DNA from: Chloroflexota bacterium
GTDB taxonomy: Bacteria; Chloroflexota; Dehalococcoidia; UBA2247; JAUWOP01
Reading direction: 5' to 3'
Assembly: GCA_030612045.1 (NCBI GenBank)
Contig: JAUWOP010000001.1
Span: 26,767-90,766, forward strand
Length of the DNA stretch: 64,000 bases
Made by a program: the position numbers and the translations under genes. The stretch's first letter is position 1, and each line of letters opens with the position of its first letter. The notes under the pieces were generated by a model. That model did not search any database. It had not been told where the DNA came from and saw only the letters and a list, made by a program, of their open reading frames with translations. Of the stretch, positions 14,912 to 63,638 are shown one piece after another.

Positions 14912-14943
14912 GGGTAGGTTGACCGATGTCGGTCAACCTACCC
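14912..14943. repeat. Family C 32-bp palindrome, copy C1 (centre TG)
   Basis: gggtaggttgaccga-tg-tcggtcaacctaccc, in the intergenic gap between hspR and clpC. Confidence 0.7.
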
Positions 14944-15057: not shown

Positions 15058-17499
15058 ATGAAACAGGACAAATTTACTGAACAGGCACAGGAGGTACTGG
15101 CTACTTCACAGGAGTTGGTACGGCGTTATCACCACAGCCAATGGGATGTAGAGCACATTCTTCTGGCTCTCTTAGAACAAGAGCAGGGATTAGCCACTAA
15201 TATACTTCAGCAGTTGGGAGTAGATACCAGTGATATAAGACGGCGAGTAGAAATGGCGCTGGGACAAGCTCCTCGGGTTGCCTACGAGGGGAATCAGATT
15301 TATGCTACACCACGAGTAGCTCATCTTCTGGAAAATGCTGCTGAGGAGGCAGAACGATTCAAGGATGAATTTGTGGGGACTGAGCACATTCTTATTGCTA
15401 CTGCCACGGAGCAGAAAGGTGAGGCGGCTCGCATCTTGCACGAAGCAGGTATTGATAGAGAAAAGCTCTACTCCGCTCTGCAACGCATTCGAGGCACACA
15501 CCGTGTCACCGACCCCCGGGCAGAGAGCAAATACCATTCTCTGGAGAAGTATGGCCGTGACCTTACCGAGATGGCACAACGGGGAAGGCTTGACCCAGTT
15601 ATAGGGCGTGATGAAGAGATAAAGCGGGTAATGCAGATACTGACACGACGCACAAAGAATAATCCAGTGATTATTGGTGAGGCAGGTGTGGGCAAGACTG
15701 CTATTGCTGAGGGCTTAGCACAGAAGATAGCCACTGAGGATGCTCCTGTATCATTAAGAGGAAAAAGGGTAGTGGCACTTGACCTTGGTGCTCTTGTAGC
15801 CGGTACTAAGTTCCGGGGGGAGTTCGAAGAGCGACTCAAGGCAGTCATGGATGAGATTCGTGAGGCAAAGGGAGAGGTTATACTCTTCATTGATGAGCTC
15901 CATACAGTAGTAGGAGCCGGTGCAGCAGAGGGAGCACTGGATGCCGGAAATATGCTTAAACCAGCGCTGGCACGGGGAGAGCTACAATGTATTGGAGCTA
16001 CCACTCTCGACGAATACCGAGAGCATATTGAAAAGGACAAGGCTCTGGAAAGACGGTTCCAGCCACTTATTCTCAATGAGCCCAGTGTGGAGGACACTGT
16101 CGAAATGCTACGAGGACTGCGCCCCAGGTATGAGGCACACCACAAGGTTACCATTGACGATTCTGCCTTGGTAGCAGCAGCCCACTTAAGCCAGCACTAC
16201 ATAAGTGATCGCTTTCTACCAGATAAAGCTATTGACCTGATAGATGAGGCGGCGAGTAAGCTGCGTATTGAGAACGGTAGTGCACCACCCCAGGTTAGAG
16301 AATTAGAGCGCCGCTTGCAGCACTTGCTTGATGAGGAGGAAGCTGCTTCACAGCGCCAGGACTACCAGCGTGCTGCTGAGATAAAGACAGAGAGGCTTCG
16401 TCTGGAGGAAGAATATAATCATGAAAAGGCAAAGTGGCTGCAGTACAGGAGACCTGATGGTGTGGTGAGTGAAGATGACATCGCTGAACTCATCTCCAAG
16501 TGGACAGGTATCCCAGTAGCTCGTATGGTGGAGAGTGAAGCCAACCGTCTCCTTCACATGGAGGAGCGCCTCCACCAGAGAATCGTGGACCAGGAAGAGG
16601 CAGTGATAGCTCTTTCTGAAGCTATCCGCCGTGCCAGGGCAGGGCTTAAAGACCCCAAGAGACCTATCGGAAGCTTCATTTTCCTTGGACCCACCGGTGT
16701 AGGCAAGACTGAGCTGGTGCGGGCACTGGCAGAGTTACTCTTTGATGACGAAAATGCCATGGTCCGCCTGGATATGTCAGAATATATGGAAAAGTATGCC
16801 GTATCCCGTCTCATTGGAGCGCCACCGGGGTATATTGGTTATGAAGAAGGAGGACAACTTACAGAGGCAGTAAGGCGTCGTCCCTATCAGACAATCCTCC
16901 TTGATGAGATTGAGAAGGCACACCCTGATGTGTTCAATATTCTGCTCCAGGTTTTGGAGGATGGCAGGCTGACAGATGGACATGGCAGAACGGTAGACTT
17001 CAAAAATACTGTGATAATCATGACCAGTAATGTAGGAACTGAGGACATTGAACGCGACCTCAGTATCCATGGCGAGCAGATGGATTCTCAACAGCTACAC
17101 AGGGCAGTAGAGGGTGCCCTCAAACGCACCTTCCGTCCTGAATTTCTCAACCGTGTTGATGACATTATCGTCTTCCAACCCCTAAGTGAGGAGAGCATCA
17201 GGCAGATTGTTGACCTGATGATGAGAGAGGTGCAGAAGCGTCTCAATGAGCACAAGATAACCATCGAACTGACAGAAGAAGCTAAACAATGGTTAGTTAA
17301 AGAGGACTATAATCCCACCTATGGGGCAAGACCACTGCGCCGTGCCATCCAGCGCTATATAGAAAATCCACTGGCGAAGAAGATACTGGAGGAAAAATTT
17401 AACACAACTGCTGCAGATAGTGAAGGAAGCACCATCCTGGTTGATGTGAAAAATGGAGAGCTGGCATTTACCGTGAAAGAAGTGCCTGAGGGCGTTTAG
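15058..17499 (+). CDS. clpC: Class I Clp/Hsp100 AAA+ chaperone; ClpC-like by its length and short UVR-type middle domain
   Basis: Two Clp-N repeats, Walker A GEAGVGKT and [11 protein letters not shown]-like motif [27 protein letters not shown]. 813 aa. Confidence 0.85.
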
Positions 17500-25153: not shown

Positions 25154-25475
25154 ATATACTGAGCATATTCCAGGGAGCTCGTCTCAAATTCCCCTAGTGT
25201 AGTGTCTCCTAAATGACTTGACAATAGACGCCCCATGTCTCATTCCTGCCCCGTATCAAGTACGGGGTAAACTCCAGCAGGAATCCAGAAGGTCCAAGGA
25301 TGGATTCCGTGTCAAGTATGGAATGACAAACTGTATAGTTATTACGACTACACTACACTAGCTATATATGGCAACGCAAATATTTGCGCATAGGATATAT
25401 GAGGAATTTCTAAACTCTAAACAAACACTCATGGGTAGCTGCCCACCATCGAACTATGAAAATAACCCACTCTTT

Positions 25476-25588
25476 CTGTCATTACGAGCCCTTCCCCTAT
25501 GTCATTGCGAGCGAAGCGAAGACGCAAAGCTAATCTCATTGTCACCCCACCGAGATTGCTTCGGCACTGCGTGCCTCGCAATGACACA
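25476..25588. repeat. Family A nested-palindrome MITE-like element, copy A1
   Basis: tgtcattgcgagcgaagcgaag...ctaatctc / gagattgcttcgg...cctcgcaatgaca inverted arms around a caccccacc loop. Confidence 0.7.
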
Positions 25589-25744
25589 TTATGGGGACGC
25601 TCCTCGCCATGAAAATAGGCTGCGGCCCATACCGTTCGTGGTGAGCTTGCCGAACCATGAACACCCTTCGACAGGTTCAGGGCGAACGGGCAAGAGTCTA
25701 TTTTCGTAATAAACTCAAATGACCCAAATCACAATCTCAAAACT

Positions 25745-25874
25745 AGCCATAACTGCGCTTACGCTCCTCAGAATCTCGAAGACCCTGAGCAACCGATTAA
25801 GGTTCGTCGCTTCGCTCAGAATGACAAAAAGCGAAGGGCTCAGGGTGACATATAAAGAGTAGGTGAACGGTTAC
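25745..25874. repeat. Degenerate family A-related segment ending in the GGTGAACGGTTAC terminus
   Basis: cgcttcgctcagaatgacaaaaagcgaagggctcagggtgaca...aggtgaacggttac. Confidence 0.4.
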
Positions 25875-25882
25875 AAATAAAC

Positions 25883-27112
25883 CTAGAATTTGGGGTTTGA
25901 TGAGGACTGATGCCTCATTTCTCTGAAGAGTTGCCACGAGAGTGGTATCAATTTCACCATTTCTCTGGCTCCGAGATGCCTTAACCCACTACGTAATAGA
26001 TTACCATGCCAGTCGAAGGAGAATTCTGATGATTCCAATAAGGTAATATGGAGATTCCTCGATTTTACCAGTTGAAACATCTGCTCTATTTGTTCGTCAT
26101 CAAGATATTCAAATAAACGGCGTGCCCTATATCCTGTCCTTAGCTCTCTTCCTAGCTTCTTACGCCATCTCCTCTCGTATGGCAGGAGGGCGTGGGCAGT
26201 AAAGTCACCTTCAAGGAAAGCCTCATGAAGGGTATCAACTGCATCCTGTGCACAGAGGAGACCATAGTATATTCCCCCACCGGTAGTAGGCTTTACCTGC
26301 CCGGCAGAGTCGCCTACCACGATAAACCTCTCTCCATAGGTCTGTGGCAAGGGCAGGAGAGGAATGCCCCCATAGCTGATAGCTGATGGCTGATAGCTGT
26401 CAGCTATCAGTGGGATTATCTTACCCTGTGCTGAGAGGGTATCTATAAGTTGTCTCAAATAGGCACCAGGCTTACGCCGAGAAATCACACCTGCTAATGC
26501 CCTCCCATGTATTGTGGGGATGAGCCAGGCAAAGAAACCTGGGGCAATATCGTTACCCAAGTATATCTCTGTTTCCTCAATAGTAGAGTATCCTGATAAC
26601 TCAACCTCCAGTTGAGCCCCGGCTATGAAGTCCTGTATCTTTCCTAGCCCTAGCCTCTGGGGGAGGGAGGAACCAAAACCGGTGGCGATGACCACTACCT
26701 TGCTCTCTATCACTCCCTCTCCCGCTACAATTCGAACTGAATCCCTGCCTCGTTTAATATCTCTTACATGGCTACCCCATACATAGAGCGCCCCGGCTCT
26801 CATGGCTCTCTCCGCCAGTAGAGAATCAAGTTTCTCTCTACATACTATGTAAGCCTGTATCTCTTCCTTCCATATCTTGATGACCTCTCCTGAAGGGGAG
26901 AAGAAGCTGGCAGAGCTTGCCGGTCGAAAGACTATATTACCATCCAGGGAGAATCTTTCCATGCACTCTCTGCTAATAATGCCACTGCAACATATTGCTT
27001 CTCCAGCTCGAGCATGTTCCTCAAAGACAATAACATCATATCCCAGGGAAGCCATACCCTGAGCCACATAACTCCCCACTGGGCCCGCTCCTACTATAGC
27101 TACATCATACAA
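25883..27112 (-). CDS. Geranylgeranyl reductase family FAD-dependent oxidoreductase
   Basis: MYDVAIVGAGPVGSYVAQGMASLGYDVIVFEE Rossmann FAD motif with a GGR-like body. Contains the in-frame D repeat encoding LIADSYQPSAISY. Confidence 0.75.
   Translation of the reverse strand: MYDVAIVGAGPVGSYVAQGMASLGYDVIVFEEHARAGEAICCSGIISRECMERFSLDGNIVFRPASSASFFSPSGEVIKIWKEEIQAYIVCREKLDSLLAERAMRAGALYVWGSHVRDIKRGRDSVRIVAGEGVIESKVVVIATGFGSSLPQRLGLGKIQDFIAGAQLEVELSGYSTIEETEIYLGNDIAPGFFAWLIPTIHGRALAGVISRRKPGAYLRQLIDTLSAQGKIIPLIADSYQPSAISYGGIPLLPLPQTYGERFIVVGDSAGQVKPTTGGGIYYGLLCAQDAVDTLHEAFLEGDFTAHALLPYERRWRKKLGRELRTGYRARRLFEYLDDEQIEQMFQLVKSRNLHITLLESSEFSFDWHGNLLRSGLRHLGAREMVKLIPLSWQLFREMRHQSSSNPKF
26374..26410. 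repeat. Family D repeat with a perfect 10-1-10 palindrome, copy D3, lying in frame inside the geranylgeranyl reductase CDS
   Basis: agctgatagctgatggctgatagctg-t-cagctatcag. The 36-nt block is read through as about 12 codons. Confidence 0.6.
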
Positions 27113-27140
27113 CTGAGTTCACCAGCCTAAATGTAATGAC

Positions 27141-28235
27141 TCAAATATACTCCACCCGGCACCCTCTTCTTCTCATTACCCCCAGTGTTATAGAAAGTGC
27201 TTCGGCATCATGGTCACAGGAAGATAGCACTATCATTGCCGAAGGTAGAGGGTGCATCCCGGAGACCTTTTGCAATGCCTGTGCTGCAGGGTGATTCTCT
27301 GCTCCTCCACAAATAGCTCTATATTCTAATTCCAGGAGTGCTGCTAGTTTCTTCGCTGCCTCAGTCTCAGCTTCCTTCAGTCGATTCAGGGTTTGCCTCA
27401 ATATTTGGATGTTAGGTGGTTGGAGGAACCTAACCCCAAGTTCAACTATTATTATCTGTGGTATCAGTTGCAGCGCTTTCTCAAGTGCTGCTGTAGGGGG
27501 CATGGTAGGGGTTACTTCTATAACCTCCTGATGGTTATATGCTGCCAGTATCACAGGAATGGAATTTCTCGCCAGAGTCATCACAGTGGAGACAAGATTG
27601 AGCGCCAGTTTATCAGCCGCCTCAGCATCACTTACCGCCAGGTTGACCACCACTACAACAGAGCCTCGCGGTGCCTCCAGATATTCCTTCACCACCAGAC
27701 TCCTGAGTTTTGCCGTATGCTTCCAATCTATGTTTATCAAACTATCGCCAGGTTGAAAGAGACGGCTGCTATAGTACTCATCTTTGGCACCATACCTGAG
27801 TTTGGTAGATATTATAGTGGCAGTTCCACCTCCTCTTCCTGCTTCTCCTGCCAGGTATCTTCTTGCCAGCCACTCAGCATATCTAGCTCGGGGAATCACT
27901 ATCATCTCTGCCAGTTCCAGCCTCTGATTTGTCTGAATTAACCCCCATGGGTCAAGGATAGATGCCTGGAGTAATAACTGGGAGGGACCCGCCAGGGGTG
28001 GGGTGAGGAACGCCTCTATACTTACCTCATCTTTAATCTCACACTCGGTGGGTGAGGTGAGCCTAACCCATGGATAGGGGGAACTTAGTTTGGCACGCAG
28101 TGGCATACCATGATGGTTCCAAGCCTTTCCGGAAAGTGATTTTGTCTCACCAGCTACTACCTTGATTTCAGTCTGAGTACTCTCTAAAGGTGTAGTGGAA
28201 AGGTGATGCATGGTGCGGTAGGTGAGCGCCAGCAA
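27141..28235 (-). CDS. DUF58 domain protein (MoxR-partner, vWA-like)
   Basis: FQPGDSLINIDWKHTAKLRSLVVKEY is the DUF58 signature region. Confidence 0.65.
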   Translation of the reverse strand: MLALTYRTMHHLSTTPLESTQTEIKVVAGETKSLSGKAWNHHGMPLRAKLSSPYPWVRLTSPTECEIKDEVSIEAFLTPPLAGPSQLLLQASILDPWGLIQTNQRLELAEMIVIPRARYAEWLARRYLAGEAGRGGGTATIISTKLRYGAKDEYYSSRLFQPGDSLINIDWKHTAKLRSLVVKEYLEAPRGSVVVVVNLAVSDAEAADKLALNLVSTVMTLARNSIPVILAAYNHQEVIEVTPTMPPTAALEKALQLIPQIIIVELGVRFLQPPNIQILRQTLNRLKEAETEAAKKLAALLELEYRAICGGAENHPAAQALQKVSGMHPLPSAMIVLSSCDHDAEALSITLGVMRRRGCRVEYI

Positions 28236-28692
28236 GTAGGCTGCCAGTAAGGCTCATAGTATAGTCACCTAGCAAGAGGGCAATAACCAGCACCACACTC
28301 AGAAACAGCGCCATTGCCTTGAATACAGGGGTAGGTTTTCTGCCCTCCACAGTGGTAGGTTGACCGACATCGGTCAACCCTACCCAAAGGGGGATAAAGG
28401 GCTCTCCTTGAGCATTCCTCCTCAGCTCCCAGTCCAGCAGAGGAATAGCAGGTATTACTATAAAGGCAGACGCTATGCTAAAAGGTTGAGGTATTATTGC
28501 TTTGAAGGTCAGTGGCAATAATGCCAGGCTCAGCAAAATCAGGGGTAGCCCTACTCTGGGACTGACTGTCTTCCACAGAAAGTATGCCTGTAACAAGAAT
28601 AGTGCTATTGCTACCGCAGAGTAGGGCATTGGTGAGAGCACCATCACCACTACTGTGGCAAGCATGATGTATATGCGAGAGAAAAGGTTCAT
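28168..28692 (-). CDS. Hypothetical integral membrane protein (about 4 TM) between moxR and the DUF58 gene; contains an in-frame family C palindrome
   Basis: Strongly hydrophobic helices. Palindrome C2 encodes the loop GLTDVGQPTTVEG. Confidence 0.45.
   Translation of the reverse strand: MNLFSRIYIMLATVVVMVLSPMPYSAVAIALFLLQAYFLWKTVSPRVGLPLILLSLALLPLTFKAIIPQPFSIASAFIVIPAIPLLDWELRRNAQGEPFIPLWVGLTDVGQPTTVEGRKPTPVFKAMALFLSVVLVIALLLGDYTMSLTGSLLAGAHLPHHASPFHYTFREYSD
28355..28386. repeat. Family C palindrome, copy C2 (centre CA, one extra C), in frame inside the membrane-protein ORF
   Basis: ggtaggttgaccga-ca-tcggtcaaccctaccc. Confidence 0.65.
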
Positions 28693-28737
28693 AATCCCCC
28701 TAACCCCCTTTAGAAGAGGGGGAAAGAGGGGGATTAT
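28693..28737. repeat. Family B hairpin element, copy B1 (moxR / membrane-protein spacer)
   Basis: aatccccctaaccccctttagaagagggggaaagagggggatt, a nested inverted repeat. Confidence 0.6.
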
Positions 28738-28758
28738 TCTTCTTTAATGATTTGGACA

Positions 28759-29709
28759 TTACACTCCCCTGGGCACAGGGACCCTCTCTATAGCTCTCTC
28801 AATAATGTCTCGTGGAGTTATCTCTCCCACAATATCTGTCTCCTGATTCAGGTGAATGCGGTGCTCCACTACCGGGCGGATAAGCCGCTTCACATCATCT
28901 GGTATCACGAAATCCCGTTCTTGTAAGAAGGCTAGCGCCCGTGCCCCCTTATATAGAGAGATGCTGGCTCTAGGTCCAGCACCACTGGAGACATCCTCAT
29001 CTCCCCGAACATGATTTACTATTCTAACAATATAATTCTCTATCTCAGGGGAAACAAACACCTTGGTGACAGCCTTTCTAAATTCTATCACCTCAGCAGG
29101 GCTTATCACTGGCTCTATCTGGAGGATGTCAAGGCTGTCAATCCTGCGAAGTATCTCGACTTCCTCTGCCCCCGGAGGATAGTTGCTCTCTGCATAGAGC
29201 ATGAAACGGTCAGCTTGAACCTCAGTAAATGGGTAGGTTCCTTCAGCTCCATATTTGAGCTGGGTGGCAATAACCAGGAATGGTTGTGGGAGGGTGTGGG
29301 TCACCCCTTCTACTGTTACCTGCCCCTCCTGCATTGCCTCCAGTAGAGCTGATTGAGTTCGCGGGGTAGTAAGATTTAGCTCATCAGCTAACACCACATT
29401 AGCAAAAATGGGTCCTGGGATGAACCGTGACTTACCATTGAGGTCGTAAATATTGAACCCTGTGATGTCACTGGGGAGTATGTCAGGGGTGAATTGAATG
29501 CGTTTGAATTCACCACCCAGGGCGAGGGCGAAGCTCTTAGCAATAGTAGTCTTGGCAGTGCCGTTGGCACCCTCAATGAGGATATGTCCCCCGCTGAGGA
29601 TTGCCACCCCCAGTAGCTCCTTCAGCTCTGCCAGCCCCACCACTACACGGGAGACCTCATCCACTATCTTCCCAAATGCTTCAAGTGATACCTTAGGTGT
29701 TTCAATCAT
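28759..29709 (-). CDS. MoxR-family AAA+ ATPase
   Basis: HILIEGANGTAKTT Walker A, DELNLTTPRTQSALLEAMQE Walker B / sensor, length 316 aa. Confidence 0.85.
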   Translation of the reverse strand: MIETPKVSLEAFGKIVDEVSRVVVGLAELKELLGVAILSGGHILIEGANGTAKTTIAKSFALALGGEFKRIQFTPDILPSDITGFNIYDLNGKSRFIPGPIFANVVLADELNLTTPRTQSALLEAMQEGQVTVEGVTHTLPQPFLVIATQLKYGAEGTYPFTEVQADRFMLYAESNYPPGAEEVEILRRIDSLDILQIEPVISPAEVIEFRKAVTKVFVSPEIENYIVRIVNHVRGDEDVSSGAGPRASISLYKGARALAFLQERDFVIPDDVKRLIRPVVEHRIHLNQETDIVGEITPRDIIERAIERVPVPRGV

Positions 29710-29727
29710 AGTTCACTCCTTCTGGTA

Positions 29728-29769
29728 GTTGTCAGCATTCAGTTATCAGCCATCAGCATCCAGCTTTTG
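29728..29769. repeat. Family D repeat, copy D4 (immediately upstream of the moxR start)
   Basis: gttgtcagcattcagttatcagccatcagcatccagc. Confidence 0.4.
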
Positions 29770-29807
29770 TATAAGTCCTGTAAACATGCGTTTCACTTCC
29801 TGTAAGC

Positions 29808-29917
29808 GTTCACCCCCTTTCATGTCGTTGCGAGGAGCGTGGCGACGAAGCAATCTCTTCCACCCCACCGAGATTGCTTCGCCTTCGGCTCGCAATGACA
29901 CAGGTGAACGGTTACCA
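29808..29917. repeat. Family A element, copy A2, with GTTCACC...GGTGAAC termini
   Basis: gttcaccccctttcatgtcgttgcgag...ctcgcaatgacacaggtgaacggttacc. Confidence 0.7.
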
Positions 29918-30023
29918 CTTCTTTTACTTGACCATCCAATGCCTCATGGGTTTTTATATCCAGGTATCCCAACTCTTGAGACAGAAGTAGATGATATTCG
30001 TAAGTGTTCACCTGCTCCCTATC

Positions 30024-30106
30024 AAATCCCCCTTAGTCCCCCTTTTCTAAAGGGGGAAAAGAATGTAAGCCTCCCCCTTTTCTAAAGGGGGACTAAGGGG
30101 GATTTT
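30024..30106. repeat. Family B composite element, copy B2 (two CCCCCTTTTCTAAAGGGGG hairpins inside an outer inverted repeat)
   Basis: aatcccccttagt-cccccttttctaaaggggg-...-cccccttttctaaaggggg-actaagggggatt. Identical over more than 80 bp to the reverse complement of copy B5 at 52330. Confidence 0.7.
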
Positions 30107-30206
30107 TCTTCTCGGGGAAAGGATAGCGTAGCCTTATATACAGACAGTACCATTCCGTGAGCCTTCTGCCATACTTCCAAGCTTCTAAAATCTCTCATTT
30201 TCAGTT

Positions 30207-30327
30207 GCCGTTCACCCATGTCATTGCGAGCGAAGCGAAGCAATCTCACCCCCCCCACCACCGAGATTAGCTTGCGTCTTCGTCGCTACACTTCTCGCAA
30301 TGACATGAGAGTGGGTGAACACTTACC
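30207..30327. repeat. Family A element, copy A3, flanked by a 13-bp direct repeat attttcagttgcc
   Basis: gttcacccatgtcattgcgagcgaagcgaagcaatctc-acccccccaccacc-gagattagcttgcg...tctcgcaatgacatgagagtgggtgaacacttacc. The direct repeat sits at 30198-30210 and 30328-30340. Confidence 0.65.
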
Positions 30328-30328
30328 A

Positions 30329-30423
30329 TTTTCAGTTGCCAGCTATCTTTTTAGCTTTCAGTTATCAGCTTTCAGCCTCCACGCCCCTGCTGATGGCTGA
30401 ATGCTGATAGCTGACAGCTAAAT
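30329..30423. repeat. Family D repeat cluster, copy D5, running up to the stop of the DUF4350 gene
   Basis: ttcagttgccagctatctttttagctttcagttatcagctttcagcc...gctgatggctgaatgctgatagctgacagct. Confidence 0.45.
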
Positions 30424-31322
30424 TAATGTTTCCATACTCGCCTCCAGGTCAGTGCTAACACCACTACGATTATACCCAGAACAACCAGCGGTGCGTCAAG
30501 AACACCGCGAGTCTCCTCCAGTCCCTCCTTGGCTACAGTCAATGCCCCTTCAGGAAGATGCGACTGGTCGAGCAGAACCTGACTATCCGAGCCGGTGGCA
30601 TTCCTGAGGAACACAGCGTTGTCCTCCATACCTTCCATACTGTTAATCAGGATGCTGGGGTCAGCTACCAGAATAACCCTTCCTGAGCCGTATGCAGTGG
30701 TGGCAATTACCGGGAGGGGACCCTTAGGCTCATCTTCGTCCCAATTTAGGTTGCCATTCTCATCCACGAAGCTGAAGTGGGAGGATTGAGCGATGACTTC
30801 AGCCTCAGAAACGTCCTTCAAAGCAGTAGCGTGGTCGAATACAATGGCTTCCACACCTGTGACCAGAGGGGAGGGGGAGAAGTCCGTTATTTGGGGAAAC
30901 TGCTCATTCTTGTAATTGAACAGGGGGTCCAGGAGGGGTGTGCCATAGAACCTTACACTCAACCCCATGTGCTCCAGCACCTCATTTCCGCAGCCATAGT
31001 CATCCATAAGCAGCAGGGTTCCCCCACCAGAAACATATAATTTTACCTGCTCTAGTTCAGCAGTAGAGAATTTAGTATAGGGTATCAGCACCAGGGTGGT
31101 GCCTGAAGGGTCAGCAGGGAGGTCTGCCAGGGAGTTCACCCCGGTGGCGGTAAACTGAGCAGTGAAATCCGTCGCACCGTTCCAGGAGGGATTGTCCTCT
31201 CTGAAATCGTCTATTACCGGATAGAGCCAGACGAGCACACCCAGCGCTATCACCGTTACTACCCCGGAAATCCACAATACCCTACGCCAGTTTACCCTTT
31301 TGTAAAGCTCATCATTACCCAC
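30423..31322 (-). CDS. DUF4350-like protein with N- and C-terminal TM helices
   Basis: TM VLWISGVVTVIALGVLVWL at the N-terminus, a large soluble domain, and TM PLVVLGIIVVVLALTW at the C-terminus. This layout is typical of DUF4350 proteins found with MoxR and DUF58. Confidence 0.5.
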   Translation of the reverse strand: MGNDELYKRVNWRRVLWISGVVTVIALGVLVWLYPVIDDFREDNPSWNGATDFTAQFTATGVNSLADLPADPSGTTLVLIPYTKFSTAELEQVKLYVSGGGTLLLMDDYGCGNEVLEHMGLSVRFYGTPLLDPLFNYKNEQFPQITDFSPSPLVTGVEAIVFDHATALKDVSEAEVIAQSSHFSFVDENGNLNWDEDEPKGPLPVIATTAYGSGRVILVADPSILINSMEGMEDNAVFLRNATGSDSQVLLDQSHLPEGALTVAKEGLEETRGVLDAPLVVLGIIVVVLALTWRRVWKH

Positions 31323-31334
31323 AAATAAAACTCC

Positions 31335-31428
31335 TCTTCCCTAAGGGGGGGGGAATGGAAGTCCCCCTTCCCTAAAGGAAGATCCCATCAGTCCCCCTTT
31401 TCTAAAGGGGGATTTAGGGGGATTACAA
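31335..31428. repeat. Family B element, copy B3 (contains a G9 tract)
   Basis: ccctaagggggggggaatggaagtcccccttccctaaagg...gtcccccttttctaaagggggatttagggggatt. Confidence 0.55.
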
Positions 31429-31716
31429 ATTCTCATACACTCTTTCGACAGCTCCACTAAGGTTCTCAAACACCTCTCTATCTGAAAACCGCAAGACTTT
31501 CAATCCATGCTCCTTCATATAATCATCCCTAATCTTATCCTTCTTAACCCCCTCATCATTGTAGTGCTGGCTACCATCAATTTCAATAATTAGCTTTGCT
31601 TTTGGACAGTAGAAATCGACTATATAGTTACCTATAATCCTCTGCCTATAAAATTGATACCCTTTCAACTGCTTTCTCCTCACCTTAGACCAAAACAGCC
31701 TTTCTGCATCAGTCAT
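31423..31716 (-). CDS. DUF559 / Vsr-like PD-(D/E)xK endonuclease-domain protein (97 aa)
   Basis: ...YQFYRQRIIGNYIVDFYCPKAKLIIEIDGSQH...LRF matches the D...EIDG DUF559 core. Confidence 0.6.
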   Translation of the reverse strand: MTDAERLFWSKVRRKQLKGYQFYRQRIIGNYIVDFYCPKAKLIIEIDGSQHYNDEGVKKDKIRDDYMKEHGLKVLRFSDREVFENLSGAVERVYENL

Positions 31717-31796
31717 ATTATTTCGTAGTTGTCTTGAGTATTCTTGTAGATTTGTATTGTAAAACAGCGAAATATCTTACTCCTGCAAAGAGGTTC

Positions 31797-31835
31797 TAAT
31801 CCCCCTCTTTCCCCCTTTTCTAAAGGGGGATTACG
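31797..31835. repeat. Family B hairpin, copy B4, 3 nt beyond the stop of the 652-aa gene; possible terminator
   Basis: taatccccctctttcccccttttctaaagggggattacg. Confidence 0.5.
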
Positions 31836-31837
31836 TC

Positions 31838-33796
31838 CTACGCCAGCCCACTCTTTAGCCCCCTTTGCACCTGCTGAGACAGGTTCTCGGCTCGGGTAAT
31901 CTCCTCATCCCCGGGTGCAACCGCAGAATACAACGCCTTTTCTGCTATTGCTGTCAGTATAGTGAAGTCCTCCTCCACATCTCCTAAACCAGTGCGGCAG
32001 TCTTTCAGAAACTCCCTCATAGTCATATGAGGCTCAAATGCCACACTGCTGACTGCCTCTACTATCTCCACCGCATCATAGTATGCCACCACAGCCCCTC
32101 CCCCTTGGGGTCGTTGTGGGGTTGCATTGCTCGCCTCATCTTTCGCTAACTGCTCTACGGGTGGCGCGACCGTAACTATTTGACCTGGTAGAGATATATC
32201 CACTTGTCCCCTTCTGCGGGTGTACAACACTACACCAATGCATACCAGTGCGACAAAGAGGAATCCGATGTTGATAATATTAGCTACAAAGGTTTTTACC
32301 TCGGTTTGAGTCTGGTCATACCATGGCTCGGCAGGAATGACCGTCACCTCTACAGCCTGATTTCCCATGTAAGTAGGGTCCAGAGGAATATGGAGAACAG
32401 CTCTAAACTCACCATCTTCTCCAGTAATTGTCTCCACTGATTCCCCTCTCAGTGTTAAGGTTACTACGGCACCCGGTACTGGAGCCCCTCCAGAAAGGAC
32501 ACATCCCGTTATCGTAATATCACTGGAGGAGAATACGATATAGGGAGAGCGGACTTCAACCTGGGTCACCATCTTTGTTATCGTTAAGGTTATTTCTTCC
32601 GATACACCAGCATATCGCTGCCAGGAGGCAACAGAGACATTAAGGGTGTGGTCTCCTACGCTTGTATCAGACGGTGGTGTCAATATCAGGGTGAATTGCC
32701 CATCTTCTCCAGTTTTACCCGAAGCCTGAGGTAGAGACCCATCATCAAGGAATACCTCCACTATCCTTCCGTTCAGAGAAGAGCCATCAGAGGTTATTCG
32801 CCCGTTGACACTCATGGGGAATCCCGGGTGTGCTTCCTCCGGAACCGTCAATTCCAGATAGGTGTCGTAGAAACCTATCTGGATAGTTTCCGTAGCAGAA
32901 GTTCCCTGATAGATATCTTTGTCACTATCTGCTGGCGTATACACTGCCCTGACTTCCATTGTGGAGACATACTTGTAGGGGACAGTCAAACTCTTACTGT
33001 ATTTGCCCTCCTCATCAGTTGTCACTGTTCCCTGGAGCGAGTCTACTATGTAGAGGGCTATTACCCTACTACCCAAGGGGCTATTATCCTCACTATCCTT
33101 ATCCTTAAGCATTCCAGAAAGTGTCACCTCATTGCCCACAAATATCTCCTCGGCGGGCACATTAAGACTCAGTTGCGTAGGGGTGAGGTCTGCCTCTTTT
33201 TCTCTCACCTGCTCATCGAGTTGCTCCTGAAGGGATTCATATCGGTCTTTTAGGTCATGCACCTTCTGCACCATACCATCCATATTATCATACGCCTTCT
33301 TCAAAAGACCGGAAGCGGCAGAGGCGAAGACTCCCACCTTTTCACCCAGTGTCCTGGTAGCTGTAGTGAGCTCTGCCAGCAGATTCTCCGCCTCAGTAAT
33401 CTCCGTCCCCACTTCGTCGAGTTTATCCTGAGCCTCACTGAGACGATTCTGGCTAAGAAGGGATGCTGCCTCATCAAGCAGGGTATCTATACTATCCAGT
33501 TTGGCGGAGACATCAGATGTCAGGCTGTTGTAGAGATTGATTATATCCCTCAAATCGTCAGGGATATTAGCTCCATCCAACTGTGCCAGCAGGTTATCAA
33601 CATCAGCAAAGTTTCCTTCAGAGATCAGCCCCATAATCTCACCGTAGTAGTTGAGTAATGAGATAGCACCAAAGGTATCCGTTGCCGTCTCAGGGTCTTC
33701 ATGCGGACTGAAGGGTAACCCCGCCAGCACTGGTGCCCCGGGAAGCAGAGTAGCTATCAGTATAATGAGTAATAAAATGGTGATTAATTTCTTCAT
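31838..33796 (-). CDS. Large secreted protein anchored by one C-terminal TM helix: signal peptide, about 180 aa of coiled coil, three CarboxypepD_reg/Ig-like beta domains, TM, and a cytoplasmic DUF4129-like tail
   Basis: MKKLITILLLIILIATLLPGAPVLAG signal; heptad-rich LxxL region; repeats such as ITITGCVLSGGAPVPGAVVTLTLRGESVETITGEDGEFRAV; TM IINIGFLFVALVCIGVVLY followed by RRRG; tail ...YYDAVEIVEAV...MTMREFLKD...FTILTAIAEKALYS. Confidence 0.55.
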   Translation of the reverse strand: MKKLITILLLIILIATLLPGAPVLAGLPFSPHEDPETATDTFGAISLLNYYGEIMGLISEGNFADVDNLLAQLDGANIPDDLRDIINLYNSLTSDVSAKLDSIDTLLDEAASLLSQNRLSEAQDKLDEVGTEITEAENLLAELTTATRTLGEKVGVFASAASGLLKKAYDNMDGMVQKVHDLKDRYESLQEQLDEQVREKEADLTPTQLSLNVPAEEIFVGNEVTLSGMLKDKDSEDNSPLGSRVIALYIVDSLQGTVTTDEEGKYSKSLTVPYKYVSTMEVRAVYTPADSDKDIYQGTSATETIQIGFYDTYLELTVPEEAHPGFPMSVNGRITSDGSSLNGRIVEVFLDDGSLPQASGKTGEDGQFTLILTPPSDTSVGDHTLNVSVASWQRYAGVSEEITLTITKMVTQVEVRSPYIVFSSSDITITGCVLSGGAPVPGAVVTLTLRGESVETITGEDGEFRAVLHIPLDPTYMGNQAVEVTVIPAEPWYDQTQTEVKTFVANIINIGFLFVALVCIGVVLYTRRRGQVDISLPGQIVTVAPPVEQLAKDEASNATPQRPQGGGAVVAYYDAVEIVEAVSSVAFEPHMTMREFLKDCRTGLGDVEEDFTILTAIAEKALYSAVAPGDEEITRAENLSQQVQRGLKSGLA

Positions 33797-34837: not shown

Positions 34838-34871
34838 CAGGTAGGTTGACCGACGTCGGTCAACCTACCTG
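34838..34871. repeat. Family C palindrome, copy C3 (perfect 34-bp, centre CG, contains GACGTC)
   Basis: caggtaggttgaccgacgtcggtcaacctacctg. Confidence 0.7.
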
Positions 34872-37316: not shown

Positions 37317-37375
37317 AGGCTGAAGGCTGAAGGGGTCTAGTAGCCTTCAGCCTAACTACCAGAGTGGGTGAACGG
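37317..37375 (+). repeat. GGCTGAAGG hairpin element plus a solo family-A terminus, in the 72-nt gap upstream of the YhhQ gene. It is a likely terminator for corA; alternatively a candidate preQ1-type aptamer (weak)
   Basis: gaaggctgaaggctgaagg-ggtctagtag-ccttcagcc followed by gagtgggtgaacggttatc. A related hairpin lies at 58121. Confidence 0.35.
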
Positions 37376-37383
37376 TTATCATT

Positions 37384-39962: not shown

Positions 39963-40165
39963 ATGTCATTACGAGCATCTGACCCCGCCGCTACGCTGAG
40001 CGGGTTATATCAGAAAGAAGTTTTGAGTTTCTTAGGAGGAGCGTGAGCGACGAAGCAATCTCGGAAACAACAGTAAAGTGGATGGCTATGAGATTAGCTT
40101 GCGTCTTCGCCTTCGGCTCGCAATGACGGGTGGAGTTTCATCACCCGCAACCTAATTTAACATTG
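39963..40165. repeat. Family A long-form composite element, copy A4
   Basis: catgtcattacgagc + module cccgccgctacgctgagcggg...cttaggagga + gcgacgaagcaatctc ... gagattagcttgcgtcttcgccttcggctcgcaatgac + gggtggagtttcatcacccgcaacctaatttaacattg. Same architecture as 52224-52497. Confidence 0.7.
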
Positions 40166-40217
40166 CCAAGGTAAACTTTATCGACCATCTGGCATCGTTT
40201 TAGAATTTAAAAGAATC

Positions 40218-45926: not shown

Positions 45927-47046
45927 CTTTCACAACACCTGTGCCTGATGCATCATCGGCTAGATTTTTGATAATGAGCTCACACATTTCCCTTGTTCCT
46001 ACCTGAGTTTTACCTTGCTCCATTATATCATAGGTGCGGTACCCCTGTTCCAAAACCTTGCTTATAGATTTCTCAATCATTTCTGCTTCTTTTTCCAGAG
46101 TGAAGGAGTAGCGAAGCATCATACCACAACTCAGGATAGTAGCTATAGGATTTACCAGATTCTGTCCTGCCCTCCGAGGAACACTGCCATGAATAGGCTC
46201 ATACATACCAAAGGTTTGCTCACCACTCTGAGGTATCCCTGATAAGCTAGCAGAAGCTAACATTCCCATAGAACCTGCCAGCATTGATGCCTCATCAGTG
46301 AGTATATCACCGAACATATTCTCGGTAACAATAGTATCAAAATAGATTGGCTGTCGAATTAGTCTCATAGCGCAGGCATCTACTAGCATGTGGTCCAGCT
46401 CTACATCAGGATATTCCTCAGCTACTTCAGTAACTACCTTGCGCCACAATCGGGAGGATTCCAGGACATTTGCTTTGTCTACCGAGGTTAATTTCCCGCG
46501 TCGTCTCCTCGCCAGTTCAAACCCTACCCTTACTATGCGCTCAATTTCCTGTTCAGAGTATGCCATAGAGTCTATAGCCCGTCTGCCACGATTAGTACGC
46601 CATTGCCTCTTAGGCCTACCAAAATAGACTCCACCGGTGAGTTCACGTACAAACATGAGGTCTACATCCTTAATAATCTGTGGTTTCAGAGTAGTAGAGT
46701 CAGCCAGCACAGGAAGAACCTTTACAGGGCGGAGATTAGCGAAAAGCCCCAGTTCCTTACGCAGTGCCAGGAGTCCATCCTCAGGACGAACTCTAGCCTC
46801 CGGGTTGTCCCATTTGGGACCACCTACCGCTCCCAGAAGTACAGCATCACTTCCATTACACAATTTCAGGGTTTGGGGGGCGAGAGCCACACCAAACTCA
46901 TCAATTGCCGTTCCACCCACCAAATCATAGTGCAGATTAAATTCATGTCCAGACCTCTTCGCAACTACTTTCAAAACCGCAACTCCAGCGGTGATGACCT
47001 CTGGACCTACACCATCACCCGGCAGAACTGTAATATCAAATCTCAT
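45919..47046 (-). CDS. leuB: 3-isopropylmalate dehydrogenase (beta-decarboxylating dehydrogenase family)
   Basis: [14 protein letters not shown]-terminus and family motifs. Adjacent to leuD. Confidence 0.8.
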
Positions 47047-49570: not shown

Positions 49571-49674
49571 TTCTGAACACCTCCTTTCCTGCCTTATTCT
49601 CCAATGGTGATATTATGCCACTGTCACCAGCTTTTGTATGTGACTTTTATCCCTCTTTACCACAGAAGTAATTG

Positions 49675-49755
49675 TTCACCCACTCTTAGGTCATTGTGAG
49701 TGAAGCGAAGCAATGACACCTGGTGAACGGTAGACGGTTTACGGTTGCGCAGCTA
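49675..49755. repeat. Family A minimal element, copy A5 (termini joined with most of the interior deleted)
   Basis: gttcacccactcttaggtcattgtgagtgaagcgaagcaatgacacctggtgaacggtagac. Confidence 0.55.
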
Positions 49756-52223: not shown

Positions 52224-52497
52224 GTAACCGTTCACCCTGTGTCATTGCGAGCATCCGACCCGCCGCTGCGCTGGGCGGGTTATATCAGAAAGGAACTCTG
52301 AGTTCCTTAGGAGGAGTGTAGCGATGAGTAATCCCCCTTAGTCCCCCTTTAGAAAAGGGGGAGGCTTACATTCTTTTCCCCCTTTAGAAAAGGGGGACTA
52401 AGGGGGATTTGATGGAGGATGAGATTAGCCTTGCGTCTTCGCTCCGCTCGCAATGACGGGTGGAATTTCATCACCCGCAACCTAATCTAACATTGTC
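52224..52497. repeat. Family A long-form element, copy A6, with a complete family B composite (copy B5, 52330-52410) nested inside
   Basis: gtaaccgttcaccctgtgtcattgcgagc + cccgccgctgcgctgggcggg module + [B5] + gagattagccttgcgtcttcgctccgctcgcaatgac + gggtggaatttcatcacccgcaacctaatctaacattg. Confidence 0.7.
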
Positions 52498-52671
52498 GAG
52501 TTACTAAATGACCTCGAAGTTTCTTGGTTGACACCCAATTTAGGGATAGGATACTATCTATACTGTGGGTAGTTGTTCAAATCTTTGTTACAGAATTTGT
52601 ATAGAGCACAGAGGAAGTTATTACCATTCCTTTGATAAGTCTAGAGTGTTTCAGCGCGAGGAGGGCTGTCT

Positions 52672-62492: not shown

Positions 62493-62860
62493 GAGCTTGT
62501 CCAGTCATCAGCCCTCAGATACTTCCACTAATCAGCAGATTGATAGACGGTAAGTATTCACCCACTCGATTACTAATCACAGGAGTCTTCGAGTTGCACC
62601 TGCTTTCCCATGGAATATTGAAGGTTCTCGTTGGTATTTGCAAGCGCCGTGAGAACAAACTCACCCCACAAGTTACCCTCCCTCAGAGGAATGTTGTGGT
62701 AGAAAAATCACACGATGAGAACTTATTCCCAGTAAGTAGGAGCGGAGAAAGCAATTGAGCTTTTACTGGGGTAGTGAAGAAAATACGGATTATTTTTGTT
62801 CTTGTACAAGAGGAGACTTAGAGTAAGGGAAGGCATTTGCTAGCCTTGGGGCAAGGTGAA

Positions 62861-63241: not shown

Positions 63242-63638
63242 ATTTCCCCCTTTGATGCGTTCTTCCTTTTACTCACTCCTAATAGGTAGTATACCATAAA
63301 AGACTTATCCCGAGATGCAGACAAACTCTCGCCAGAGCTGCGTTCCTGTTTTGCTACACGCAGACTTCAATCCTACACCAGAGAGGAGTATCGCACAGTA
63401 ATAAAGGGGGTACTCACGCACCGTGAGGAGGTCGCTCCAGAGATAGCTGAGGAGGTTGCCCACAGGCTTGATGGCAGAACCCAGGATGTGCGGGATGCCG
63501 TCCGGGTTGCCAGGCTATCACCCCAGGTAGGAGTGGAGAAGGCAATTGAGATTTTGCTGGGGTAGAGTGCAATTTCACGTTTAGGCAGCCTTGAAACCTT
63601 CCATTACCTTATGACTGAGTGAACATTCTGGACTTTTG

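Follow-up and report, generated by a model that had tools for sequence, protein, structure and literature searches.

Intergenic repeats of an uncultured Chloroflexota bacterium as probable miniature elements with IS66-type ends and an inner pair of REP-like units

The 64-kb stretch of contig JAUWOP010000001.1 from an uncultured Chloroflexota bacterium that is analysed here (the window) contains a family of short palindromic repeats, Family A, and the question this locus raises is what kind of element these repeats are and which enzyme may have moved them. A preliminary description of the same DNA had put forward at least six copies (A1 to A6) of a modular element that resembles MITEs (short for miniature inverted-repeat transposable elements), with GTTCACC/GGTGAAC termini around a nested palindrome. 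It is apparent that Family A is a known kind of element, and the transposase family that is the source of its ends can now be named. The family probably consists of non-autonomous MITEs that carry the terminal inverted repeats (TIRs) of the clade of IS66 insertion sequences (IS) with a single open reading frame (ORF), the ISBst12-like clade, around an inner pair of units that resemble repetitive extragenic palindromes (REPs). This reading draws on the statistics of the repeats, their TIRs, the 8-mers that flank them, an IS clade that matches in its ends and whose transposase domains and duplications are seen, and how widely the inner unit occurs, all of which were observed directly, and if correct it documents IS66/ISBst12-type MITEs in uncultured Chloroflexota.

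Six copies together with solo ends occur in the 64 kb, the elements being 68-282 bp long and non-coding, and none of the copies overlaps a gene called on the near-identical contigs, in line with the intergenic position that the preliminary description had proposed. With motif counts allowing up to one mismatch and expected values taken from shuffles, the core motif GTCATTGCGAGC has 10 matches in the window against 0.18 expected. These fall on both arms of the copies claimed at 25.5, 29.8, 30.2, 40.0 and 52.3 kb, and the copy at 49.7 kb (A5) carries a two-mismatch variant of the core, GTCATTGTGAGT; all six copies can be recognised. The termini are also real, but the true terminus is longer than the heptamer first described, being the 13-nt GTAANNGTTCACC with the consensus GTAA(G/C)(C/T)GTTCACC. 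It has nine matches (at 25862, 29802, 29903, 30000, 30314, 37367, 49668, 52224 and 62550) against 0.8 expected, an over-representation of about 11-fold, and the termini are inverted and bracket A2 and A3 exactly. The left end of A3 (30204) is outside these nine and was recovered at two mismatches. That all copies share common termini holds for some of them: both ends are present in A2 (12/13 when paired as GTAAGCGTTCACC / GTAACCGTTCACC), in A3, which matches perfectly over the inner 7 nt and poorly over the outer 6 nt, and imperfectly in A5, but A1 has only a left remnant, A4 has no recognisable end and A6 has only the left, and these three are degenerate or compound forms rather than clean copies.

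The solo termini S1 and S2 (Table 1) are present, as are the inner inverted pair GAAGCAATCTC/GAGATTGCTTC in A1, A2 and A3, the extra hairpin module CCCGCCGCTRCGCTGRGCGGG in A4 (39984-40004) and A6 (52259-52279), and the collapse of A5, in which the left and right units are fused at a common GCAAT. The interior of A2 forms an inverted heterodimer, its two hairpin units being the variants GAGGAGCG(N)GGCGACGAA and GAGCCGAAGGCGAA, both of which also occur elsewhere; in A3 two inverted units enclose a C-rich loop. Both elements are predicted to fold into hairpins, A2 at -55 kcal/mol (z -5.7/-7.1) and A3 at about -50 kcal/mol (z -4.2/-6.8).

The 8-mers flanking A2 match at 7/8 positions and those flanking A3 at 8/8, the latter lying inside a longer direct repeat. 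This repeat had been described as 13 bp, ATTTTCAGTTGCC, at 30198-30210 and 30328-30340, where it is indeed present, and it extends to 14 bp, CATTTTCAGTTGCC. Its proposed origin as a target-site duplication stands in part: the first 8 nt fit an 8-bp duplication of the IS66 type, 8 bp rather than 13 being the length to be expected of this clade, if A3 starts at 30204, but the 6-nt excess (GTTGCC), which coincides with the atypical outer left end of A3, is ambiguous. The 14-bp repeat may have been there before the insertion, or the left end of A3 may have been rearranged, and A2 is the cleaner case of a duplication. No 8-bp duplication is recognisable at A5, nor at two further loci (L178 and L207).

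Published inverted repeats of IS66 begin GTAAGCGTCCGG... and GTAACCGTCCGG... (PMC12888890), and in ISDge4, which belongs to the single-ORF ISBst12 group, the TIR is GTAACTGCTCAGCA and the direct repeat is 8 bp long (PMC12898284). The IS66 family is marked by TIRs that start with GTAAGCG or GTAACCG and by duplications of 8 bp, and Family A has both. When a metagenome collection was scanned for the extended terminus GTAANNGTTCACCCACTCT, 28 matches were obtained that are mostly due to chance, yet in two contigs (L252 and L258) the match starts at the first base of an IS of ~1.5 kb with the opposite end ...GTGAACATTTAC, which encodes a single ORF of 479 amino acids with DUF6444, zf-IS66 and DDE_Tnp_IS66 domains (E 1.5e-28). 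The IS in L258 is flanked by CCTTGTTT/CCTTGTTT. Homologues of the transposase, which were not chosen by any DNA pattern, share 59-64% amino-acid identity (1565 proteins at E<=1e-20), and those on plasmids bear the annotation IS66 family transposase. The IS elements of these homologues (L279-L285) are 1584 bp long with perfect 20-nt TIRs, GTAAATGTTCACCTCCCTCC, and 8-bp duplications (ATTAGACC, GATCAGTG and AGAAGATC). Overall, the full-length IS recovered are 1.5-1.6 kb with ends GTAAATGTTCACC, and these full-length relatives of Family A carry PF03050, PF13005 and PF20042. In viral contigs the extended terminus gave only chance matches within coding sequence, and no full-length IS with inverted GTAA ends was found in ~1.9 Mb of fetched loci.

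Similar small elements are found in other genomes. A sister MITE family in the Caldilineales metagenome-assembled genome (MAG) MAG_24, with seven copies (five with both ends on the contig and two cut by contig ends), has the arrangement GTAACAGTTCACC..units..GGTRAATTGTTAC, and two of its copies have flanks that match at 8/8, TAGAAACC (L189, a palindromic target) and GATTGATG (L159). A further MITE in a metagenome (L253/L269) has the same left end, and the same arrangement of CTCAGAATGAC plus TIR as S1. The placing of IS66-type TIRs around the hairpin unit is specific to the Chloroflexota families. Family A thus resembles IS66-derived MITEs of the ISBst12 group in its GTAA-starting TIR, which continues as in the recovered clade (GTAAnnGTTCACC), in its 8-bp flanking duplication, in its non-coding length of 114-123 bp and in the presence of several copies per 64 kb; it differs in that its interior, a pair of REP-like units, is unrelated to the IS, and in that the host is an uncultured Chloroflexota bacterium. 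As the elements have no ORF, and hence no DDE_Tnp_IS66 transposase within them, Family A is non-autonomous and not itself a member of IS66. It is the combination of IS66-clade ends, the length of the 8-bp duplication and the lack of coding capacity that makes it a MITE. The original suggestion of a MITE is therefore upheld for the TIR-bounded copies, with their IS66-clade termini and flanks (A2 7/8, A3 8/8, sister family 8/8), but not for the degenerate or compound A1, A4 and A6.

How such elements may have come about can be outlined. A DDE transposase of the IS66 clade, whether its gene lies outside the window or has since been lost, would bind both termini and insert an element of ~115-125 bp with the creation of an 8-bp target duplication, thus it is mobilisation in trans that we infer for Family A. 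The interior is not derived from the IS; instead its inverted pair of REP-like units turns the whole element into a hairpin of about -50 kcal/mol. A deletion between the two GCAAT motifs probably led to the collapse of A5, later decay would account for the termini missing from A1, S1 and S2, and A4 and A6 probably gained extra hairpin modules, A6 with another palindromic repeat in addition.

A number of points weigh against this reading. No transposase of any kind is present among the genes called on the near-identical contigs, which cover 13.4-55.9 kb, and the IS with matching ends come from other, unrelated metagenomes of unassigned taxonomy. The IS in L252 and L258 were recovered with a pattern derived from the MITE terminus, which is partly circular, although this is mitigated because the homologues were not selected by terminus. 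Intact 8-bp duplications are found at only two copies in the window and at 2/7 copies in Caldilineales MAG_24, and A3 has the 14-bp repeat, the atypical outer 6 nt at its left end and surroundings of heptamer repeats; its duplication may predate the insertion. Finally, six assemblies of the same population that are >=99.9% identical over 13.4-55.9 kb (ENA ERZ4220366, ERZ4220937 and ERZ4219663, and Logan runs) do not differ in the presence or absence of any insertion and thus give no sign of recent mobility. The only indels in the population are of 11 bp at 28244 and 6 bp at 30908, and of a single base pair missing at 16683 from assembly L245.

A comparison of filled and empty sites, which the preliminary description had suggested, draws here on a distant relative. 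A2 and A3 lie inside an operon of DUF4129, DUF4350, MoxR and DUF58 genes. A relative with 67% MoxR identity (L238) has the same operon (DUF4129-like, DUF4350, MoxR, DUF58), in which the junctions are 3 bp or overlapping, whereas in the window these junctions are occupied by spacers full of repeats, of 713 bp (29710-30422) and 515 bp (31323-31837). This implies that the spacers were acquired by insertion, although with a relative so distant (3 bp against 713 bp) the exact empty site cannot be delimited. Given the tight junctions in the relative, A2 and A3 are probably co-transcribed with the operon, and any effect on its transcription is presumptive.

Whilst the termini point to IS66, the interior has a far wider distribution. 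The core GTCATTGCGAG...GAAGCAATC, which all six copies share, is not specific to the element; it is a hairpin unit of many bacterial phyla that also occurs without these termini. The unit is ~25-35 nt, gTC-ATTGC-GA-(variable stem-loop)-GNR-GCAAT-C, and an inverted pair of units is what had been described as the nested palindrome. It is kept nearly letter for letter in ~18 phyla and in viral contigs. A scan of genomes found it at >=114 loci, with a range of phyla among the matches listed (Bacteroidota, Chloroflexota, Nitrospirota, Planctomycetota, Actinomycetota, Bacillota, Spirochaetota, Acidobacteriota, Verrucomicrobiota, Gemmatimonadota, Myxococcota, Desulfobacterota, Zixibacteria, Omnitrophota, candidate-phyla-radiation lineages and others), and the pattern TCATTGCGAG-N(4-16)-GAAGCAATC is carried by >=120 viral contigs. 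A core identical at 26/26 nt is found on Novosphingobium plasmids, in >=40 places on one replicon, and cores with 89-96% identity are found in Methylosinus, Methylobacterium, Psychrobacter, Halomonas and several cyanobacteria. In the Chloroflexota relative with the nearest leucyl-tRNA synthetase (LeuRS, 75% identical) pairs of units are present without IS66-type termini.

Across 196 unique variants the unit has a 5-bp basal stem, ATTGC/GCAAT, above which a 5' GA faces a 3' triplet (GAA in 137, GCG in 21 and GTG in 20), followed by a distal helix of 2-8 bp with loops that are mostly GNA. The number of consecutive closing pairs in the distal stem is 2.49 in the proposed register, compared to 0.56 when shuffled and 0.05 and 0.39 in shifted registers, and there are 39 distinct distal stems among the 196 unique inserts, thus the hairpin has been maintained through sequence change. 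Units in the window start (c/a/t)TGTC-ATTGC and end GCAAT-CTC; across loci a G precedes TCATTGC, and itself mostly follows C or T, and the commonest tail is CCAG (79/400 units). Both the window and Novosphingobium have inverted dimers, as do many other loci. On one viral contig (L045, 2696-2818) four units are instead in direct tandem with a 33-nt period.

Other identities for the unit found little favour. A crude count of sense orientation in viral contigs (39 vs 51) gave no bias of the kind that an RNA element upstream of genes would show, and no fit was found to the consensus motifs of ribozymes, k-turns or attC sites. No curated family in Rfam fits the elements, with only two tRNAs reaching the gathering threshold, and an E-value scan of 25300-30500 returned only chance matches to microRNA-like hairpins. 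A literature search by repeat motif or encoded peptides found nothing relevant.

The closest description in the literature is that of the CGTC/TGTC-tagged REPs, which in Di Nocera et al. 2013 (PMC3733652) have a tag that stays unpaired (CGTC, or TGTC/CCTC), a stem opened by A-T pairs and a 3-nt tail, are mostly inverted dimers and occur in five phyla with no transposase associated. The unit resembles these in its unpaired (C/T)GTC tag, in the complementary A-T pairs that open the stem (ATTGC/GCAAT), in its short 3' tail (CCAG commonest elsewhere, CTC in the window) and in the predominance of inverted dimers, with 15-40-nt spacers and no dedicated transposase known, and Novosphingobium is a genus on their list. 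The stems of those REPs are 8-9 bp with 4-5-nt loops, whereas in the unit an internal GA/GNR loop separates the basal stem of 5 bp from a variable distal stem of 2-8 bp; it is also found in more phyla and on viral contigs, and is here bracketed by IS66-type TIRs. The assignment is tentative and by description, and the published alignment may divide the same sequence in another way; the supplements of that paper do not contain the unit sequence. The reach of the unit is thus far beyond the five phyla reported for CGTC-tagged REPs.

This likeness raises the possibility that the pair of units is the mobile entity, spread in the manner of REP doublets forming hairpins (REPINs) by a REP-associated tyrosine transposase (RAYT) or other HUH/Y1 single-strand transposase, with GTAA..GTTCACC merely incidental flanking sequence. 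Family A is similar to the REPINs of the REP-RAYT system (Bertels and Rainey 2011, PMC3116915) in having two inverted hairpin units with a short spacer that form one long hairpin in an intergenic position, the dimer architecture and structured unit also resemble REPs as described in PMC3733652, and unit pairs without these termini exist in many phyla including the Chloroflexota relative. However, the GTAG tag that is typical of RAYT substrates is absent, no RAYT or other Y1 transposase is present among the called genes of 13.4-55.9 kb, and the same paper links no transposase to CGTC repeats; nor was any linked here to the unit itself. Incidental flanks would not be expected to be over-represented and inverted, to bracket A2 and A3 precisely or to match the ends of real IS66-clade elements, and a DDE transposase is the enzyme suggested by the outer TIRs with their duplications of 8 bp. 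Spread of this kind is therefore unlikely for Family A.

It is conceivable, and we offer it only tentatively, that the unit is a structured single-strand DNA or RNA site for some very widespread enzyme or host factor yet to be named. Capture between IS66-type ends may then be one route by which the unit spreads in Chloroflexota, a route that is testable as the unit lies between ends recognised by a transposase, and if true this would bear on how the apparently transposase-less CGTC-type REPs are mobilised.

A further explanation is that the elements are not mobile at present, but are old hairpins that have been multiplied by recombination or slippage and selectively retained for a structural or regulatory role, as terminators, mRNA stabilisers or protein-binding sites. 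This would be in keeping with the lack of insertion polymorphism in the population, the very stable folds, the positions between genes and within an operon, and the retention of unit structure despite sequence change. It does not account for the flanking 8-mers at A2, A3 and the sister family or for termini identical with those of an IS clade, no terminator-like T-tracts are found at the elements, and the copies are heterogeneous and decaying rather than conserved, so that we consider it improbable, slightly more so than REPIN-like spread. That Family A is not one element but a mosaic of very small repeats, each module (terminus, unit, CCCGC hairpin or 84-bp palindrome) being mobile and inserting independently in the manner of the small dispersed repeats of cyanobacteria, is the least credible explanation, for although there are solo termini at 30000, 37367 and 62550, an 84-bp palindrome that is both nested in A6 and free at 30021, and extra modules in A4 and A6, the copies A2 and A3 are compact, TIR-bounded and duplication-flanked, and decay explains the solo termini equally well.

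The nested, modular small repeats and adjoining heptamer arrays do look very similar by description to cyanobacterial Nezha MITEs, small dispersed repeats and short tandemly repeated repetitive (STRR) arrays, but Nezha is linked to ISNpu3 rather than IS66. A cyanobacterial origin was ruled out by gene content and nearest homologues. The window encodes a V-type ATPase, PolX, ClpB, MutL, DnaN and LeuRS, the nearest homologues of MoxR are 68% identical, and every named relative is from Chloroflexota or Dehalococcoidia. Synteny around LeuRS is not conserved in the relative with 75% identity.

Table 1. Coordinates of Family A copies, their flanks, solo termini and a second repeat family in the window.
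Feature	Position	Strand	Sequence and remarks
A1, unit dimer with duplicated left tag	25462-25588		left terminus remnant ATAACCCACTCT; no adjacent right TIR
S1, right-end fragment	25807-25874		variant units ..GCTCAGAATGAC.., ..GCTCAGGGTGAC..; right TIR GGTGAACGGTTAC at 25862-25874
A2 left 8-bp flank (putative target-site duplication)	29794-29801		CACTTCCT
A2, complete 114-bp MITE	29802-29915		left TIR GTAAGCGTTCACC, right TIR GGTGAACGGTTAC, 12/13 complementary
A2 right 8-bp flank	29916-29923		CACTTCTT, 7/8 match to left
Solo left TIR	30000-30012	+	GTAAGTGTTCACC; 8 nt upstream of 84-bp palindrome 30021-30104
A3 left 8-bp flank	30196-30203		CATTTTCA
A3, 123-bp MITE	30204-30326		left end GTTGCCGTTCACC, outer 6 nt atypical; right end GGTGAACACTTAC
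A3 right 8-bp flank	30327-30334		CATTTTCA, 8/8 match
A3 right, after 8-bp flank	30335-30340		GTTGCC, same as first 6 nt of A3
S2, solo right terminus	37367-37379	-	reverse complement ATAACCGTTCACC, then CACTCT
A4, long compound form	39963-40173		without clean TIRs
A5, collapsed copy	49668-49735		GTAATTGTTCACC, one fused unit GTCATTGTGAGTGAAGCGAAGCAATGAC, then GGTGAACGGTAGAC
A6, long compound form	52224-52505		left TIR GTAACCGTTCACC only
Solo left terminus-like sequence	62550-62562		GTAAGTATTCACCCACTCG
Second repeat family, 84-bp near-perfect palindrome	30021-30104 and 52330-52413		CCCCCTTTTCTAAAGGGGG / GGGGGATTT motifs
84-bp palindrome, partial copies	28703-28736, 31377-31425, 31795-31843

The long form A4 starts with a left unit tag and a CCCGC..GCGGG hairpin; after a spacer come GAAGCAATCTC, the loop and the right unit, and the tail is a GGGTG..CACCC hairpin. 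By self-comparison A4 and A6 have ~78 nt per side in common with 87-92% identity, and in A6 the central loop is replaced by the 84-bp palindrome. The two full copies of this palindrome are in reverse complement and 100% identical, which suggests recent spread. The solo terminus at 62550 has a weak inverted match, GAGTGAACATT, ~1.07 kb away (~63612-63632) with small ORFs between; an IS66 transposase would not fit into this distance, and chance may account for the match.

From a practical point of view the elements break short-read assemblies, lengthen the spacers of operons and give rise to spurious ORFs. Contigs from short reads stop within A2 (29891), A4 (40106), A6 (52268) and the 84-bp palindrome (30057).

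Tandem arrays of heptamers or octamers are found at 26382-26410, 29729-29762, 30348-30417 and 49722-49749 and directly adjoin the MITE termini, A5 for instance continuing into the GGTNNAC-like heptamers GGTGAAC GGTAGAC GGTTTAC GGTTGCG. Such arrays, which resemble the cyanobacterial STRRs, also adjoin MITE ends in the Caldilineales MAG (L159 and L216), and may either be preferred targets or have been generated from the ends of the elements.

Within the 515-bp operon spacer there is an ORF of 81 amino acids (31423-31668, - strand) with matches to DUF559/MTES_1575, a Vsr-like endonuclease, with incomplete copies of the GGGGGATT palindrome family on its flanks. There is no such gene between the counterparts in L238, and the region may be a small mobile cassette. 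The 6-bp indel at 30908 falls in the DUF4350 gene, and at 28244 two other assemblies have 11 bp more, CAGTAAGGCTA, by which ORFs of 364 and 174 amino acids become a single protein of 520 amino acids, therefore the allele in the window may be a frameshifted gene.

A third repeat, the 30-nt perfect palindrome GGTAGGTTGACCGACGTCGGTCAACCTACC, is found at 14913-14942, 28354-28383 and 34840-34869, with a weak copy at 46799-46828, and the copy at 28354 lies inside the ORF that other assemblies show joined to DUF58. Between A1 and S1 lies GTGGTGAGCTTGCCGAACCATGAACACCCTTCGACAGGTTCAGGGCGAACGG (25638-25690), which may be another intergenic repeat, of a kind widespread in bacteria.

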